The notes under the pieces: model-generated
What the model saw: only the letters and a program-made list of their open reading frames with translations
Told to the model about the DNA's origin: nothing
Databases searched by the model: none
Shown here: piece after piece, positions 50,256-57,113 of the stretch
How the letters are laid out: every line of letters starts with the position of its first letter
Numbering within the stretch: the first letter of the stretch is position 1
Assembly (NCBI GenBank): GCA_964581625.1
Contig: CAZOPE010000013.1
Span: 1,833 to 65,832, forward strand
Origin: an uncultured Cellvibrionaceae bacterium
GTDB taxonomy: Bacteria; Pseudomonadota; Gammaproteobacteria; Pseudomonadales; Cellvibrionaceae
Direction of reading: 5' to 3'
DNA length: 64,000 bases
Program-made: the position numbers and the translations under genes

Positions 50256-52268
50256 TTATTCACGCGCCCGCATCGGAATTTTATATCTCTGCTCACGGTA
50301 CAACAAAGACGGCAATATTACGTGTGCCATCGCTTTATCAACTTGCGCTTGCGAAGGACTTTCATTTTTCATAGTAAGCTCACCTTTTGCGGCATCGTAA
50401 CGGCCAAGTAACGGGCTTTTGTTAGGCCTTAAAATGGTAGCCGCATCGCCTTCCAACCACGCAAAATAATTATCAAATTGCATGAGCGCCCGCCCTGGTG
50501 TTTCGTTATCTTTGGCGAAATCACGGCCAATCATTGGGTGCTCACTGGTTATGCCCATTAACGACAAGAGTGTCGGCGCCAAATCAATTTGGCTTGCCAA
50601 GTGCGCAATACGTTTTGGCTGAACATCCGCCCCCATAATCAAGCCTGGAATGTGGAATTTTTTTATGGGTACTAAACTATCCCCGTAAACGCGGTTATCG
50701 TGATCTGCAACAATCAGGAAAATAGTATCTTTCCAATAGGCTTGTTTTTTCGCTTCATTAATAAACTTACCTAACGCGTAATCGGCGTACTTAACAGCGT
50801 TATTAACGGTTTGTTTAGTGGAGTCGTGCAACTCGATACGGCCATCGGGGAATTCAAAAGGCTCATGGTTGGACGAACTAAAAATCAAACTGAAAAAAGG
50901 CTTATTTTCTGAATGCAACTGCTGCAATCGCTCAAGTGACTTGTTAAATAAATCTTCATCGCTTGCGCCCCAACTACCAACGAACACGGGGTTTGGTATA
51001 TCACCACGATCAACCACCTGTTGAAAACCGTTACCGGTAAAAAAGCCGCGCATATTATCGAAATGGGCTTCACCGCCATACACAAACTCTGTGTGATAAC
51101 CTTGCTCACCCAAACCTAAGGCCAAGGTGTAAAAATTGTGTTGTGCTAGCGAAAGTTTAACCACGCTACGTGCAGGTGTTGGAGCGTAACCTGAAACAAC
51201 GGCTTCAATTCCCCGCACAGAACGCGTACCTGTTGCGTAAAGCTGCTCAAACCACCAGCCTTCATTTTTTAGCTTTTCTAACTCTGGCGTAACGGGTAAT
51301 CCGCCAAGGGATTCCACAAATGTTGCACCTAAACTTTCTTCCAAAACAATAACCAAGTTGAGTGGCTTTTCCCGGGCTACAGCCGGAACTTGGCGATGCA
51401 ATGTTGGATAGTCCGTTGATGCAAATTCATATCCACTCAACCAAGGAGCAGCCTTAACCTGCTGAAATACTTTTTCACGGGGGAAAGCGCCGTAAATTTC
51501 CGACGAATTAGCCTCACGGCGCATTCCGTTCAAAGCATCAAAAACAGACCAGCCGGAATTAATAATTAGCGAGTTCACTAGCGCATCGCCAGACAAAGCA
51601 AACAAGGCAGGGTTCGCAGGGCGATGATCTGTAGTAGACCTCACCTGAAGAAAAACCAAAATAAAAATAAGGGGCCAGGATAATAAGAGCTTTTTTGTAG
51701 ACCAGAGTTGTATATTCGCAGAGGCCTCATCAAGGATTTTATAAATTCCCAAACCCAACAGAATTGTAAAACCAACACCTAAAATAAGTGCCAAACGAAA
51801 ACCGTTCCATAAGGTGGATAAAACTTCTTTTGGATAAGAGAGATATTCAATAAATAATCGATTAGGACGTAAGTCAAACTGCATCATAAATGGCGGCGTC
51901 GATAACTCCATAAATATTACGAACACCAACGCAAACGTCGCCCAACTCAAATTGAATAACCGCCACGCGCGTACGGATACTCTGTGCGCTAACAAAGGCG
52001 CCAATAAAACAGCTATAGCGAAAAAGTACCCCAAGAGAATCAAATCCGCGCGTATGCCTTGCAAGATCATATCGCTCACAATACCGGCAGCGCTAACGCG
52101 ATCCCATTGCCATGCCATTAACCCCCATCTCGATAGGGATAACACAACTAAACCGAGCAACAACATTTGAACCATTGTTGCGTAGGGGCCGGCCCAAGCG
52201 GTGAGAGAAGTCATACCTGTTGCGAATTTGGCGAGCCGCTGCTTTATCGCACCAATTATCTTTATCAT
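50256..52268 (-). CDS. LTA-synthase/sulfatase-family membrane protein (phosphoglycerol-transferase-like)
   Basis: Five N-terminal TMs, NLVIVLEESL, GTRSVRG, SNHEPF, LIVADH, ASQIDLAPT. Confidence 0.88.
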   Translation of the reverse strand: MIKIIGAIKQRLAKFATGMTSLTAWAGPYATMVQMLLLGLVVLSLSRWGLMAWQWDRVSAAGIVSDMILQGIRADLILLGYFFAIAVLLAPLLAHRVSVRAWRLFNLSWATFALVFVIFMELSTPPFMMQFDLRPNRLFIEYLSYPKEVLSTLWNGFRLALILGVGFTILLGLGIYKILDEASANIQLWSTKKLLLSWPLIFILVFLQVRSTTDHRPANPALFALSGDALVNSLIINSGWSVFDALNGMRREANSSEIYGAFPREKVFQQVKAAPWLSGYEFASTDYPTLHRQVPAVAREKPLNLVIVLEESLGATFVESLGGLPVTPELEKLKNEGWWFEQLYATGTRSVRGIEAVVSGYAPTPARSVVKLSLAQHNFYTLALGLGEQGYHTEFVYGGEAHFDNMRGFFTGNGFQQVVDRGDIPNPVFVGSWGASDEDLFNKSLERLQQLHSENKPFFSLIFSSSNHEPFEFPDGRIELHDSTKQTVNNAVKYADYALGKFINEAKKQAYWKDTIFLIVADHDNRVYGDSLVPIKKFHIPGLIMGADVQPKRIAHLASQIDLAPTLLSLMGITSEHPMIGRDFAKDNETPGRALMQFDNYFAWLEGDAATILRPNKSPLLGRYDAAKGELTMKNESPSQAQVDKAMAHVILPSLLYREQRYKIPMRARE

Positions 52269-52358
52269 TTTTCAAATTCCTGAAGGCTTTACTAAAAATT
52301 TGGAGGAAGGCCGCAAACTAGGCTAGCGAATGATTAATCGTTATAATTCCAAAGCTTT

Positions 52359-54584
52359 TTGCCTTTCACAGCGATTATAACCGAAGCCCACCATTCCAGC
52401 ACCAAGGGTCCCAGCTTGACGCATTTATCTTACAGCACGCTTAACATTGGCCCCTATCAGGGAAATATTGCACCTGAATTTGACAATGACACATTGCGAA
52501 CAAATTTGGCTTGCATTACCAACTTTTTAAAAAGCCCCAAGGCAGTTCGCTTGTCGAATGGCGTGGATTATGTTGTGCGGGTGCCCATTAATACCCTGAA
52601 TGGGGAAATAGTTGTTGCACTCAAAGTTTTCAAGCGTCAAAGCTTGCTTAAGGATCGCTTCGATCAAAAGAACAAGTCGAAAGCTGAGCGTTCATTTAAC
52701 GCAGCGGCCTATTTAAAAGCCCATGAGATAGGAACCCCAGCGCCTGTTGCTTGGCTTGATCGCTGGGAAAACAATCGCTTGATTGAAAGCTACTTTCTAA
52801 GCATTTTTCAACCGGCAATTTGTTTCAGAGACGCGCTTACCGATCTATACAATGGCGAACGTGACAACGCGCTCTTGATGGAATTATTACATTTAGTCGC
52901 TCCCGCTATAAAGCAAATGCATGATCATCAATTTATGCACGGCGATTTGGGCAACCAAAATATATTGCTCCCCAAAAACGCAGATGGATCTTGGGGGCAA
53001 CCGCAATTTATTGATTTGAACCGCTGTGCAATTCCTGGGCGGCCACTAACAGATAAAGAGCGAGCATTTGATTTGTCTCGCCCCATATTGCCAGGCAATT
53101 ACCTCAATTTTTTTAAATATATTTACTGTAATCATGATATGCCGTCCAAGGCGCTTGAGCGGCACGAAAAAACTTATCGCGAGCGCTTTGCATTCCATCG
53201 AAAATCCAAACACTTTCGCCACCCTATTCGCTTTTTGAAAAACCGCCACAAAAAGCCGGCACATGCTTATCCAGATCCAAAAGATTATTGGTTATGGGAT
53301 GAAAAAACAGCTCAACCCATGATTGCACTTTCAAAGAAGGAGAAAAGCCAGCAGCGATTTTTTATGAATTCGCTAAAAATTATTGGTGGCACGCTCAGCG
53401 CACTACCCGGCATTTTTACGCGCTACCGTTCATTAAAAAAGCAGAGTTTTAAGCAACCAGTAGTATTAAAAAACCGTATTGGCGTAGCCCTTCATCCGCA
53501 TGATGATTACATTGAACATGAATTAAGGCTGCTTGGTGAATTAGGGAATCCACCTATACTCATTCGTTTTTGCCGCCACGAAACTGACGCCATTTGGGAT
53601 AAAACAATTGCGCTTGTTCAGCGCCTTCATACCCAAGGCGTGGAAGTTATGGTTGCGCTCTTGCAGGATCGCCAAGCAGTTCTACAACCAGAGCTTTGGT
53701 CTGTGTTTTTGCATAAAATAATTCCTGCCATTGCTCAGCACACACAACACATTGAAATCACGCATGCTTTCAATCGAATTAAATGGGGAATTTGGACCTT
53801 AAATGAATGGCAACAATTGATTAACCCTGCTTTTGAATTACAAAAGCAATTTCCTCACATTCAACTTACTGGGCCAGCCTGTATTGATTTCGAATATATG
53901 CCGGTGATTGGTGCGTTAAAATCGTTGAAACCTGGGCAAAAGTTTTCCGCTCTTTCGCATCTCTTATATGTGGATAGACGCGGAGCGCCTGAAAATCCGC
54001 AAGGCCCTTTCGCAACACTGGAAAAGTGCGCTTTATTAAAAGCGTTGACACACGTAACACCCAACTGCGATGACAAGGTTATTATCTCTGAAGTTAACTG
54101 GCCAATTGAAAATACCGACATCTGGTCACCTATCGTATGCCCTTATGTGACGCCAAAGTGGAAAGAAAAACCTTCTGGCGAATCTGAAGCGGCTTATGCC
54201 AATTACATGTTGCGTTACATTGTTATTGCAATTTGCTCCGGGCATGTCGACCAATTGTTTTGGTGGCGCTTATCCGCAAAAGGTTACGGATTAATTGATG
54301 ATCAAAATCAATTTAAACCACGCCTTGCTTATTCAGCACTGCAATACTTTTTTGTGCGCTTAGGCGATTCAACTTTTATCAAACGCTGGCCATCCGTAAA
54401 AAATATTTATGTGATGGAGTTTCAGAATGATACCCAGCAAATACTTATGTTGTGGTGTATCAATGGTGAGTCTACGGATTTGCCCAAGTTTGATGCGCAG
54501 AAAACCTATGACCGGGACGGAAACTCGCTGAAAAAAGCAGTTATATCCGAGTCACCCATTTATTTAGTTCGTGGGCTGCTTTAA
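52359..54584 (+). CDS. LPS kinase (Kdo/WaaP family) fused to a glycoside-hydrolase-like TIM barrel
   Basis: VALKVFKR, HGDLGNQNILL, FIDLNR; C-half IEITHAFN, LSHLLY, IISEVNWP, QLFWWRL, GYGLID. Start codon uncertain. Confidence 0.75.
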   Translation: MPFTAIITEAHHSSTKGPSLTHLSYSTLNIGPYQGNIAPEFDNDTLRTNLACITNFLKSPKAVRLSNGVDYVVRVPINTLNGEIVVALKVFKRQSLLKDRFDQKNKSKAERSFNAAAYLKAHEIGTPAPVAWLDRWENNRLIESYFLSIFQPAICFRDALTDLYNGERDNALLMELLHLVAPAIKQMHDHQFMHGDLGNQNILLPKNADGSWGQPQFIDLNRCAIPGRPLTDKERAFDLSRPILPGNYLNFFKYIYCNHDMPSKALERHEKTYRERFAFHRKSKHFRHPIRFLKNRHKKPAHAYPDPKDYWLWDEKTAQPMIALSKKEKSQQRFFMNSLKIIGGTLSALPGIFTRYRSLKKQSFKQPVVLKNRIGVALHPHDDYIEHELRLLGELGNPPILIRFCRHETDAIWDKTIALVQRLHTQGVEVMVALLQDRQAVLQPELWSVFLHKIIPAIAQHTQHIEITHAFNRIKWGIWTLNEWQQLINPAFELQKQFPHIQLTGPACIDFEYMPVIGALKSLKPGQKFSALSHLLYVDRRGAPENPQGPFATLEKCALLKALTHVTPNCDDKVIISEVNWPIENTDIWSPIVCPYVTPKWKEKPSGESEAAYANYMLRYIVIAICSGHVDQLFWWRLSAKGYGLIDDQNQFKPRLAYSALQYFFVRLGDSTFIKRWPSVKNIYVMEFQNDTQQILMLWCINGESTDLPKFDAQKTYDRDGNSLKKAVISESPIYLVRGLL

Positions 54585-54691
54585 GAAGTTGAACGAGGCT
54601 AATTGGTTTCCCGGAATAAGTTCGGCAACCCACAGAATTACACCTAGTGTGAGCGCATGATAATTTTTAAACGGCGCAAAGGGAGAACCCC

Positions 54692-55228
54692 ATGAAACGC
54701 ATCGGCCTATTTATTTTGGCTTTAATCACTCTATCTCTGACCAGTTGCTTAGGAAAGCCCGAGAAAATTGTACCTGTTACTCATTTTCAATCTGACCATT
54801 ACTTAGGTACTTGGTACGAAATTGCGCGTCTGGATTTTTACCACGAAAAAGGAATGACCCACGTTACTGCCCATTACAGTTTGCGTGAAGACGGTGGAAT
54901 TAAAGTGCTAAATCGAGGTTATCTTGCAGAGAAAGGACGCTGGCGTGAAGCTGAAGGAAAAGCCTATTTTGTAGAAGATAAAAATACAGCGTATTTAAAA
55001 GTGTCCTTCTGGGGCCCTTTTTATAGTTCCTACATCGTTTTTGATCTCGATGAAAATTATCAATACGCCTTGGTGACGAGCTCCAGCAAATCCAATTTGT
55101 GGTTACTGGCTAGAACGCCTACCATTTCTGGTGAGGTTAAAGCCAGTATGCTCGCGAAAGCGGCTGCGCTAGGCTTTGATACCAACAAGCTGGTTTATGT
55201 AGAGCAATCGGAAAAGCCTCCACAATAA
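54692..55228 (+). CDS. blc: Outer-membrane lipocalin
   Basis: Lipobox LTSC, YLGTWYEIARLD, LKVSFWGPF, YQYALV, LWLLARTP. Confidence 0.92.
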   Translation: MKRIGLFILALITLSLTSCLGKPEKIVPVTHFQSDHYLGTWYEIARLDFYHEKGMTHVTAHYSLREDGGIKVLNRGYLAEKGRWREAEGKAYFVEDKNTAYLKVSFWGPFYSSYIVFDLDENYQYALVTSSSKSNLWLLARTPTISGEVKASMLAKAAALGFDTNKLVYVEQSEKPPQ

Positions 55229-55235
55229 ACGCTAA

Positions 55236-55604
55236 TCAGTGGCTTATCATCCATGGGCGCATTGAGGGAAACATTTTGTTGCCCTCAGCTGTAAACATTA
55301 GCGCCGATTTGCGAATTGGCTTATCGCCACAACCACAGCCCTTTCCATGCTTATGTTGATGCCGGGCTTTTTGCTCCGCACGATAATCGGGTGTGGAAAA
55401 AACAGGTTCGTTCATTGCTTTTTCATTGCGCGAATGTGCGGCACGGTTTTCTTTTTTCATATCCAGAAATTCTGGCGCAACCATAATGACACGCGCAGAT
55501 AAATTTCCGCAGGTTGGGCAAGCGCAGGGCTGGCTCGAGTTTTCCATGGTGTTTAACTCGTGAAATAAGCCATGTTCTGTGCATTTGTAATCGTAGACGG
55601 GCAT
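55236..55604 (-). CDS. fmdB: FmdB-family zinc-ribbon protein
   Basis: MPVYDYKCTEHG..CPTCG; C-terminal FPSMRPWMISH. Confidence 0.88.
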   Translation of the reverse strand: MPVYDYKCTEHGLFHELNTMENSSQPCACPTCGNLSARVIMVAPEFLDMKKENRAAHSRNEKAMNEPVFSTPDYRAEQKARHQHKHGKGCGCGDKPIRKSALMFTAEGNKMFPSMRPWMISH

Positions 55605-55640
55605 GATTATTCTCCTAATGCAGTTAAGTATAATTTCATA

Positions 55641-55860
55641 TCTTTTTCGCCTGTTGGCGAGTCACTTTTCGTTGCTTGTCCAACGAAAAGTAACCAAAAG
55701 AAAAGACACCCCTCTCGTTCCATCTCCTCCGCGTTTCAGAAAATAGCCGTCGTTCCGGTGCGACATCCCTGTCGCATCGTCACTAAAACAAACTTCCTGT
55801 TTGTTTTACGACTATTTTCTTCCAATGCTCAGGGAACTCGCAGGGGCCCGTGGCGACAAT
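55641..55860. repeat. Highly structured non-coding element (MITE/REP-like) between fmdA and fmdB
   Basis: Several nested hairpins within ~220 nt (see findings); only one copy in this window. Confidence 0.6.
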
Positions 55861-55883
55861 AGTTAGCTTTTTGAGCGCATGAA

Positions 55884-57113
55884 CTATTTATCTTTCGATA
55901 AAGGTATATCCATTCCTGGTGTTACCTTCTTCGTTGGCCCTTCCGCACTTGGGTTCACATCGAAATCGAAAATATCCGTTGGCAGCCATAAGGTTGCGCA
56001 GGCATTGGGAATATCAACAACACCACTGATATGACCTTGCACCGGAGCACAACCCAAAATGGCGTAAGCTTGCGCTTTGCTGTAACCAAACTTGGTTAGA
56101 TAATTAATCGCATTCAAACAAGCCTGACGATAAGCAACGTGAACATCGAGGTAATGTTGCTCGCCATATTCATCTACCGATATACCTTCAAAGATTAAAT
56201 AATCGTCGTATTTTGGGGCAATTGGGCTTGGTTTGAAAATGGGGTTTTTGATGGCGTATTTCGCCATACCGTCTTTGATTAAATTCACACGCAGATGAAT
56301 CCAGCCAGCCATTTCAATCGCGCCGCAAAATGTAATCTCACCGTCACCTTGGCTAAAGTGCAAATCACCTACGGATAAACCGCCGCCCTTTACATAGACA
56401 GGGAAATAAATTTTGGAACCGCGCGACAGATCTTTAATATCGCAGTTACCGCCGTGCTCACGCGGTGGTACAGTGCGCGCACCTTCAGCGGCTGCTACTT
56501 TCGCCTCATCAGGCTTCATGCGACCCATATGTGCGGTATCCGCATAGGGAAGTGTTGCAAGTGCAGGAACGCGGTCTGGTTCTGTTTCGTACAATTCTTT
56601 TTCGCGTTTGTTCCACTCCAGTAACATTTCTTTGGATGGCAAGCAACCAATCAATCCGGGGTGTACCAAGCCTGCGAATTCCACATTAGGCACGTGACGG
56701 GATTTGGTGAACATGCCGTTAATATCCCAAATGGATTTTTGCGCTTCCGGAAAGTGCTCTGTTAGAAAGCCACCACCATTTTGTTTGGAGAAAAATCCAT
56801 TAAAGCCCCATAAGCTTTCTTGAAAAGCGCCTATGTCTAGAATATCAACAACCAGCAAATCACCCGGCTCAGCACCTTCAACACCTACAGGCCCGGAGAG
56901 AAAATGCACTTGAGATAAATCTACATCGCGTACGTCATCTGCGCTGTCATTGTTAGCAATTTGCCCGCCTGTCCAGTCGTAACATTCAATAATAAAATCA
57001 TCGCCCGGCTTTACTGTCTTAACCATTGGTATATCGGGATGCCAGCGGTTATGGATCATGTCGTTTTCGTAAGGCGATTTTTTTAAATCTACTTTAATAA
57101 TCGTTTCTGTCAT
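55884..57113 (-). CDS. fmdA: Formamidase
   Basis: HNRWHPDIP, PREHGGNCD, GDLHFSQGDGEI, GVVDIPNAC. Confidence 0.95.
   Translation of the reverse strand: MTETIIKVDLKKSPYENDMIHNRWHPDIPMVKTVKPGDDFIIECYDWTGGQIANNDSADDVRDVDLSQVHFLSGPVGVEGAEPGDLLVVDILDIGAFQESLWGFNGFFSKQNGGGFLTEHFPEAQKSIWDINGMFTKSRHVPNVEFAGLVHPGLIGCLPSKEMLLEWNKREKELYETEPDRVPALATLPYADTAHMGRMKPDEAKVAAAEGARTVPPREHGGNCDIKDLSRGSKIYFPVYVKGGGLSVGDLHFSQGDGEITFCGAIEMAGWIHLRVNLIKDGMAKYAIKNPIFKPSPIAPKYDDYLIFEGISVDEYGEQHYLDVHVAYRQACLNAINYLTKFGYSKAQAYAILGCAPVQGHISGVVDIPNACATLWLPTDIFDFDVNPSAEGPTKKVTPGMDIPLSKDK

Follow-up and report, generated by a model that had tools for sequence, protein, structure and literature searches.

A putative lipopolysaccharide core kinase fused to a GH39-like barrel with alanine at the acid/base position in an uncultured Cellvibrionaceae bacterium

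The gene described here occupies positions 52359 to 54584 on the plus strand of a 64,000-nucleotide stretch of DNA (the window, to which all coordinates refer unless a contig or locus is named) from an uncultured Cellvibrionaceae bacterium (GenBank assembly GCA_964581625.1, contig CAZOPE010000013.1). The host genome is labelled G000, and its assembly is 93.6% complete. In databases, close homologues of the encoded protein carry names that mark this genome as a Cellvibrio. The encoded protein joins a domain of the lipopolysaccharide (LPS) kinase family to a second domain that is predicted to fold as a barrel of glycoside hydrolase clan A (GH-A), and in this barrel an alanine stands at the position of the acid/base glutamate while a candidate nucleophile glutamate is retained. 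On balance, and with modest confidence, we read the protein as a cytoplasmic enzyme of LPS inner-core assembly that works at the membrane surface, a kinase combined with a glycan-recognizing and possibly noncanonically catalytic barrel.

The two domains of the fusion

The longest open reading frame (ORF) starts at TTG 52359 and codes for 741 amino acids, and residue numbers throughout are those of this frame. Because homologues of 721 to 723 amino acids start with MTHL in line with residue 20, and because AAGGG is found 7 nucleotides 5' of TTG 52416, the real start is probably TTG 52416, which gives a protein of 722 amino acids. A chance ORF is excluded by more than 300 full-length homologues and by the invariance of the columns at the catalytic sites. 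Conservation was scored in 74 full-length fusions from several phyla, at 34 to 84% identity, and all fractions of 74 below refer to that set. The features of the fusion are as follows.

52359-54584, plus strand: longest ORF, 741 amino acids, starting at TTG 52359
52416-54584, plus strand: probable true gene, 722 amino acids plus stop; TTG 52416 is residue 20
52437-53258, plus strand: Kdo/WaaP-family (protein-kinase-like) domain, residues about 27 to 300, from PF06293, Foldseek and the structure model (predicted local distance difference test [pLDDT] about 90)
52614-52625, plus strand: VALK, residues 86 to 89, with the ATP-anchoring Lys89
52938-52961, plus strand: HGDLGNQN catalytic loop, residues 194 to 201 (His194, Asp196, Asn201)
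53013-53024, plus strand: DLNR, residues 219 to 222, with the metal-binding Asp219 (equivalent to the DFG aspartate)
53289-53318, plus strand: W-x-W-D...Q-P linker motif, residues 311 to 320
53358-53441, plus strand: basic-flanked helix in the model, residues 334 to 361, with mid-helix Pro350; proposed membrane-interface helix
53445-54581, plus strand: GH39/PslG-like (beta/alpha)8 barrel with C-terminal beta-sandwich, residues 363 to 741, from VIA-align, Foldseek and the profile search of PDB
53760-53789, plus strand: end of strand 4, T-H-A-F-N-R-I-K-W-G, with Ala470 at the acid/base position; THAFN (residues 468 to 472) is 53760-53774
53886-53894, plus strand: D510-F-E512, acidic pair after strand 5
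53973-53993, plus strand: D539-R-R-G-A-P-E545, family-specific loop after strand 6
54084-54101, plus strand: strand 7, I-S-E-V-N-W, with the candidate nucleophile Glu578 and Asn580; ISE (residues 576 to 578) is 54084-54092

The kinase looks active because its catalytic Lys, His, Asp, Asn and Asp are conserved across the fusions, Lys89 and His194 in 74/74 and Asp196, Asn201 and Asp219 in 73/74. The Kdo/WaaP family model PF06293 matched residues 160 to 236 with 32.3 bits, against a gathering cut-off of 21.3 (E value, 8.6e-8), and the best NCBIfam match of this part was KdkA (NF002475), over residues 101 to 227. In a search of PDB with the single sequence, only marginal kinase matches (TP53RK; E value, 0.004) and one GH30 protein (E value, 0.15) were returned. 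The AlphaFold model of the full protein had a pLDDT of 85.3 and a predicted template modeling score (pTM) of 0.77, and its N-terminal domain was matched by Foldseek to WaaP (6dfl; E value, 4e-9) and to PRPK/Bud32 (6wqx; E value, 7e-9).

The C-terminal half is predicted to adopt the GH-A fold and is closest to GH39 and PslG. With the full model, Foldseek returned PslG, a GH39 protein, at an E value of 8e-16 (about 1e-15), followed by GH30 xylanases, and VIA-align gave Z scores of 30.6 to 5jvk (GH39) and 29.3 to PslG, aligning model residues 363 to 739 with residues 35 to 442 of PslG and 127 to 525 of 5jvk. A model of the domain alone (pLDDT, 91.8; pTM, 0.92) scored Z 33.0 against 5jvk in the wide VIA-align search (340 residues aligned; root mean square deviation [rmsd], 3.0) and Z 31.6 against PslG 4zn2 (351 residues aligned; rmsd, 3.2), the next family being GH79 at Z 25.9. 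The models contain eight strand-helix units and reach Z 20 to 33 against structures of GH39, GH79, GH30, GH51, GH5, GH1 and GH10 enzymes. The domain thus has the GH39 architecture of a barrel with a C-terminal beta-sandwich, but by sequence profile it falls outside GH39. Neither this protein nor any of 28 relatives matched PF01229 (GH39) at E values up to 1, and genuine GH39 genes in the same genome score E values of 1e-119 and 1e-55. A family profile searched against PDB found 5jvk at 7.6e-5, as remote homology only. For the C-terminal half, no Pfam or NCBIfam family was matched by this protein or by the 28 relatives, even at an E value of 1.

The ends of strands 4 and 7 are the sites of the GH-A catalytic glutamates, the acid/base and the nucleophile, respectively. 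When hhalign was used to align the family profile with eight bona fide GH39 enzymes of Cellvibrio, including two of the host genome, IEITHAFN fell opposite FEVWNEPN, which puts His469 in place of the Asn and Ala470 in place of the acid/base Glu. This alignment had a P of 0.005 and low posterior confidence; the register at strand 4 was fixed by the E-x-x-(N/H)-x-x-N and GxW anchors, and at strand 7, where hhalign was off by two residues, Glu578 was placed from its strand position in the model. In the domain model, Ala470 is the last residue of strand 4 (residues 464 to 470) and Glu578 is the penultimate residue of strand 7 (residues 574 to 579). Position 470 is Ala in 64, Val in 7, Thr in 2 and Asn in 1 of the 74 fusions and never Glu or Asp, and it is Ala in 28/28 rows of a divergent, mostly stand-alone set of barrels, A2. 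The strand-7 family consensus, ITExNWP, is akin to the ITE motifs of GH-A, and Glu578 is present in 74/74. The barrel fold and the strand-7 glutamate of a GH-A enzyme are therefore both there, and the strand-4 glutamate is not.

The residues around these two positions are strictly kept. Arg403, Gln436, Arg438, Asn472, Arg473, Lys475, Trp476, Asp510, Tyr537, Asp539, Arg540, Arg541, Gly542, Pro544, Glu545, Lys556, Asn580, Arg619, Trp635 and Trp636 are each found in 74/74 fusions and Glu512 in 72/74, and the acidic pair Asp510 and Glu512 is also invariant in A2, stand-alone forms included. With about 30 invariant residues, the barrel domain probably has a function. The GH-A counterparts on strands 2, 6, 7 and 8 (Arg, Tyr, Glu and Trp) are retained, the N-E pair alone is altered, and basic motifs have newly appeared after strands 4 and 6. 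Because only that pair has changed and basic motifs have been gained, the barrel appears to keep a functional pocket and may bind something anionic in it.

Immediately ahead of the barrel, the W-x-W-D...Q-P motif (Trp311 in 73/74; Trp313, Asp314 and Gln319 in 74/74) and the helix that follows it are retained in stand-alone barrel proteins as well, where the motif lies at the N terminus. The best 19-residue Kyte-Doolittle hydropathy of the helix was calculated for 205 fused forms and 28 stand-alone barrels. It is 1.14 in the present protein; the median of the fused forms is 0.82, with 3/205 reaching 1.6 and 0/205 reaching 1.9, and lysines and arginines flank the helix on both sides. On account of the low hydropathy and the basic flanks, a transmembrane reading of residues 334 to 361 was rejected for fused forms. 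The translation has no hydrophobic stretch at its N terminus and no signal peptide. In fused forms, we infer an interfacial helix with both domains in the cytoplasm.

An earlier note, made from the sequence alone, had described a single ORF carrying VALK, HGDLGNQN, DLNR, THAFN and ISE, with intact kinase motifs, a GH-A-like barrel in which the acid/base motif was altered and a nucleophile-type glutamate kept, and no signal peptide. All five motifs were located at the coordinates listed above, and the conservation of the kinase residues bears out the second point. The barrel was recovered by Foldseek and VIA-align as a GH39/PslG fold, with Ala470 opposite the Glu of NEP, and the cytoplasmic character agrees with the N terminus and with a helix that is not transmembrane-like in 202/205 fused forms.

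Gene context across phyla and in Cellvibrio

The barrel family is widespread. A search with the barrel alone gave 435 clusters at 50% identity, 179 of them at an E value of 1e-30 or better. The majority are fusions some 720 amino acids long, alongside stand-alone proteins of 410 to 475 amino acids and longer fusions, including one type that combines a family 4 glycosyltransferase (GT4), the kinase and the barrel. Scanning genomes for LYVDRRGAP, a motif that takes in part of the loop after strand 6, recovered the family from at least 587 species genomes, with members in the Cellvibrionaceae and other Pseudomonadales, Legionella shakespearei, the Akkermansiaceae and other Verrucomicrobiota, the Kiritimatiellia and the Lentisphaerae. 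Within an even sample of 400 gammaproteobacterial genomes, it occurred in 11 besides the host genome. Two rare longer forms, P0196 and P0205, carry TsaE or RibF (FAD synthetase) N-terminal to the kinase and barrel, and at L025:1052-3636 tsaE is the gene immediately upstream; such forms may be genuine or may result from read-through in gene calling or assembly.

Unsupervised clustering of the genes around 80 loci from Gammaproteobacteria, Verrucomicrobiota, Kiritimatiellia and Lentisphaerae gave the following neighbours.

GT4: 30/80 loci
GT9 heptosyltransferase: 18/80 loci
LpxL-type lipid A acyltransferase: 15/80 loci
MsbA: 12/80 loci
LtaS-like sulfatase family: 9/80 loci
GT2: 9/80 loci
YrbL: 7/80 loci
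WaaL: 6/80 loci

The gene for YrbL, a kinase-like protein of the PhoP network, adjoins the fusion at L060:7559-8209 and at six other Verrucomicrobiota or Legionella loci. The two halves of the fusion are also found as separate genes: one stand-alone barrel gene overlaps the end of a gene for PEMT plus Kdo kinase, and another directly follows the gene for a 269-amino-acid kinase homologue (hhalign probability, 97%). Because such split forms stay adjacent and the neighbours are lipid A and core genes, the two halves are predicted to act together, in lipid A-core assembly. The lipid A and core context across phyla upholds the assignment to the LPS core that the earlier note had proposed.

Homologues with 55% identity are encoded next to valS in Cellvibrio sp. 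PSBB006 and on a metagenome contig, within a block of the order DUF6165-GT9-Glyphos_transf-GT2-[fusion]-GT1/GT9. The core cluster of Cellvibrio consistently includes DUF6165 and a TagF-like (PF04464) gene. In the host genome, the corresponding core block is on contig 61 (L122:5074-9778) and reads DUF6165-GT9-Glyphos_transf-|-GT9(-)-GT4(-)-valS, with GT9 and GT4 after the bar on the minus strand; the fusion is absent from the place that it normally takes. In the host clade, the fusion instead adjoins the sulfatase-family gene, outside the core cluster. Since HldE and three GT9 genes are present in the host genome, its core should contain heptose.

The fusion is the sole LPS-family kinase detected in the host genome. 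Two other PF06293 matches were rejected as LPS kinases, one being a Hanks kinase with tetratricopeptide (TPR) repeats and the other a 449-amino-acid Ser/Thr kinase. Four other Cellvibrio genomes (G016, G009, G015 and G006) encode a 650-amino-acid WaaG-WaaP fusion beside GT9, MsbA and HldE; no such gene was found in the host genome (G000) or in its close relatives G019, G022, G013 and G007. In G016, this WaaG(GT4)-WaaP gene is at L018:5374-7326 (contig 1, 3953373-3955325), between a GT9 gene and msbA/hldE. There seem to be two distinct core-kinase solutions in Cellvibrio, and some species carry both. Because the fusion is the only LPS-family kinase found in the host genome, it probably supplies there the core phosphate that other Cellvibrio obtain from the WaaG-WaaP protein.

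The genes on either side of the fusion in the window, and the gap between the fusion and its divergent neighbour, are as follows.

50256-52268, minus strand: divergent neighbour, putative membrane protein of 670 amino acids with a sulfatase-fold domain, VP1736/LtaS-like
52269-52415, no strand: intergenic region between the two divergent genes, about 147 bp if the fusion starts at TTG 52416
54692-55228, plus strand: gene for a Blc-type outer-membrane lipocalin, directly downstream of the fusion
55236-57113, minus strand: formamidase gene (fmdA) and FmdB-type zinc-ribbon gene, apparently unrelated

A lipocalin gene also follows the fusion at L028, L030, L031, L066 and L102, the last from a Verrucomicrobiota metagenome-assembled genome. 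The gap to the divergent sulfatase-family ORF had been put at 90 bp, which is correct for the longest ORF but becomes about 147 bp from the probable start at TTG 52416. A promoter and terminator scan of 52150-54800 gave no more sites than shuffled sequence did, and no promoter-like site was called within the intergenic region.

The neighbour matched the sulfatase model PF00884 over residues 304 to 573 (E value, 2.7e-45). Against PDB, its best match was VP1736 of Vibrio parahaemolyticus (3lxq; E value, 4e-147), followed by LtaP (1e-23) and LtaS (1e-10 to 1e-14). No published function was found for VP1736, of which the structure 3lxq has been solved. The best NCBIfam match of the neighbour was phosphoglycerol transferase I (OpgB; E value, 1e-22), at 80 bits against a cut-off of 572, and neither the OpgB nor the LtaS equivalog cut-off was reached. 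These matches class the neighbour as LtaS/OpgB-like rather than EptA-like.

The fusion and this gene stand next to each other in more than one way. They are divergent in the host clade, and they are codirectional in L036, L039, L040, L041, L048, G020 and G024, where the LtaS-like gene lies immediately downstream of the fusion, inside the core cluster; in one GT9-WaaL locus, a sulfatase-family gene is convergent beside a stand-alone barrel. Among 25 Cellvibrio genomes, 15 have both genes, 9 have neither, 1 (G002, 84% complete) has the fusion only and none has the neighbour only. In three of the genomes with both (G016, G003 and G021), the two are far apart. In a tree of valyl-tRNA synthetase (ValRS), a single gene with several weak nodes, the genomes lacking both genes fall in at least three places (G012 alone, G009, and G017, G006 and G015 together), and G009 is sister to G020 and G024 with support of 98/98. 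In Cellvibrio, the fusion and the LtaS-like gene are co-inherited. A universal coupling of the barrel family to an LtaS-like gene was considered and is ruled out by a class-wide sample of Gammaproteobacteria, described below. The pairing with a sulfatase-family gene suggested by the earlier note therefore holds for the three adjacency arrangements and for the near-perfect co-occurrence in Cellvibrio, but it is limited to some lineages.

Proposed role and competing explanations

In the reading that we favor, the WaaP/KdkA-type domain would use ATP to phosphorylate heptose or Kdo on lipid A-core as it is being made at the cytoplasmic face of the inner membrane, a choice of substrate that follows the kinase family and the gene context. 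The basic, proline-kinked helix would keep the protein at the membrane surface, and the GH39/PslG-like domain would recognize the core oligosaccharide and thereby choose which sugar receives the phosphate; possibly, it would in addition process a substrate with a leaving group that does not have to be protonated. After export by MsbA, the co-inherited VP1736/LtaS-like transferase would probably decorate the LPS in the periplasm with a head group of the phosphoglycerol type. The idea of a cytoplasmic kinase that binds or edits the glycan of the LPS core, put forward in the earlier note, thus gains from the core context and the cytoplasmic character of the protein, with the barrel perhaps only binding the glycan and perhaps editing it too.

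Several observations weigh against this reading. The kinase lies far under the KdkA equivalog cut-off (30 versus 142 bits), which makes this a family-level match only, and no WaaP-specific NCBIfam model matched the kinase part at an E value of 0.01 or better. The pocket geometry comes from strand positions in the model only, and so strict a conservation of both acidic and basic residues in the pocket would be more typical of an enzyme than of a lectin. A truly hydrophobic helix, usually with a central proline, is present in 9/28 stand-alone barrels (8/28 reach 1.9); it could be a re-entrant segment or a real anchor, and those forms may be periplasmic. The link to the LtaS-like gene is confined to some lineages: strong orthologues of the neighbour occur in about 3% of the sampled Gammaproteobacteria, and in the class-wide sample 10 of the 13 genomes with such an orthologue have no barrel homologue of any kind, the other 3, all from one family, have the fused form as well, and the neighbour is found in 0/7 genomes with a stand-alone barrel. 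Furthermore, hydroxyl groups are the usual acceptors of LtaS-type enzymes, and the partner may therefore act independently of the phosphate installed by the kinase.

The conservation of the pocket also bears on whether the barrel is a working noncanonical glycosyl-transfer or trimming enzyme, which would make the protein bifunctional together with the kinase. Here, the donor attacked by Glu578 would be a sugar nucleotide, a glycosyl phosphate or some other compound with a good anionic leaving group, and Arg473, Lys475, Arg540 and Arg541 would hold that group so that no acid catalyst is needed. The invariance of about 30 residues across phyla, with five acidic and at least six basic ones clustered after strands 4, 5 and 6, points this way, as does the loss of the acid/base residue alone while the strand-7 glutamate is kept throughout. 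Stand-alone forms imply that the domain has a role of its own, and acid/base mutants of retaining glycosidases are well established to process substrates with good leaving groups. To our knowledge, however, no such activity has been described for LPS core assembly, the orientation of the basic residues toward the -1 and +1 sites is deduced from strand positions in the model, and loss of the catalytic acid is also a classic route to lectin-like pseudo-glycosidases such as the chi-lectins, with Klotho among the fold matches here. We regard this explanation, the main rival, as possible but rather improbable. A bolder and doubtful proposal makes the GH39-like domain a new cytoplasmic, acid-free glycosyl-transfer enzyme in which Glu578 displaces, from a glycosyl phosphate or sugar nucleotide, a leaving group of the phosphate type that the Arg/Lys cluster behind strands 4 and 6 keeps in place, the barrel either using a sugar phosphate made by the kinase or adding a sugar to the phosphate that the kinase has installed. 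If true, the assembly of the LPS core would include an additional, non-Leloir step in many diderm phyla.

Two further explanations move the protein or its target elsewhere, and we consider both very unlikely. Instead of LPS, the target could be osmoregulated periplasmic glucans, an exopolysaccharide, a glycolipid or some other glycan, with the OpgB/LtaS-like pairing reflecting that pathway. OpgB is indeed the best NCBIfam match of the neighbour, there is no LPS gene among the Pfam-scanned neighbouring genes in the window, and the close fold relative PslG serves exopolysaccharide; but the OpgB match is far under its cut-off, other Cellvibrio carry both genes inside the heptosyltransferase core cluster adjoining valS, and the neighbours across phyla are lipid A and core genes. 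The other, to which we give the least weight of all, is a receptor-type transmembrane kinase, with helix 334-361 crossing the membrane, a glycan of the periplasm being sensed by the GH39-like domain, anchored as PslG is, and the cytoplasmic kinase responding by signalling or by modifying a target. The domain order of kinase, helix and extracytoplasmic-type domain resembles that of PknB-like kinases, the LtaS-like partner acts in the periplasm, a hydrophobic helix is present at the equivalent position in the 9/28 stand-alone barrels mentioned above, and the alignment to PslG starts at residue 35, just behind the N-terminal membrane anchor of PslG. Against it stand the low hydropathy of the 205 fused forms, the abundance of Lys and Arg on both flanks of the helix, the mainly cytoplasmic-face enzymes encoded nearby (GT4, GT9 and LpxL-type acyltransferases) and the existence of the GT4-kinase-barrel fusion.

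Phosphorylation of the LPS core stabilizes the outer membrane, and WaaP is a recognized drug target in Pseudomonas. The family described here would be a different and widespread solution to core phosphorylation, in which the kinase is joined to a conserved, acid-less domain of glycosidase fold that has no Pfam model. The role of the barrel would reveal either a new principle of substrate targeting in LPS kinases or a new acid-independent chemistry of glycosyl transfer. Cellvibrio offers a natural experiment, with species that carry the fusion and the LtaS-like gene, species that carry WaaG-WaaP and species that carry both.

Comparison with known systems

We found no paper describing the kinase-barrel fusion and no description of the core structure of Cellvibrio. 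What the present analysis adds is the status of the fusion as sole kinase, the relocation of its gene from the core cluster, the family-wide helix test, and the co-inheritance with the LtaS-like gene together with its limits.

The kinase half shares with WaaP (RfaP, the heptose(I) kinase; P. aeruginosa structure 6DFL) its family, its fold, the Lys/His-x-Asp...Asn/Asp motifs and a place in LPS core clusters. However, the match to the family model is partial and weak (32 bits, residues 160 to 236), and the fusion adds about 440 residues of linker, helix and GH39-like domain. KdkA, the Kdo kinase (NF002475), gives the best NCBIfam match, but the fusion is not its equivalog at 30 of the 142 bits required, and KdkA is a single-domain protein. 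The WaaG-WaaP protein of other Cellvibrio is likewise an LPS-family kinase joined to a carbohydrate-active domain; there, a GT4 transferase at the N terminus serves as the partner, and PF06293 matches the kinase strongly (E value, 1e-46).

The barrel half matches PslG (4zn2, 5bx9 and 9g17), the GH39 endoglycosidase of Psl biosynthesis, and BcGH39 (5jvk) over the whole domain and in the glutamate at the end of strand 7. It differs from them in having only 13 to 16% identity and no PF01229 match, in carrying Ala for the acid/base Glu and His for the Asn, and in being a predicted cytoplasmic domain fused to a kinase. Chi-lectins, Klotho and beta-Klotho, and myrosinase, which is without the acid/base Glu, also combine a glycosidase fold that has lost the general acid with an otherwise preserved pocket, although they belong to unrelated families with unrelated biology; the conservation of the present barrel is much stricter than would be expected of a domain that only binds. 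Finally, the arrangement with the LtaS-like gene recalls WaaP and EptC (CptA) of E. coli, where the core kinase acts in the cytoplasm and its partner, a sulfatase-fold transferase, decorates the core in the periplasm. The neighbour in the present case is LtaS/OpgB-like and not EptA/EptC-like, and its best match, VP1736, is itself uncharacterized.

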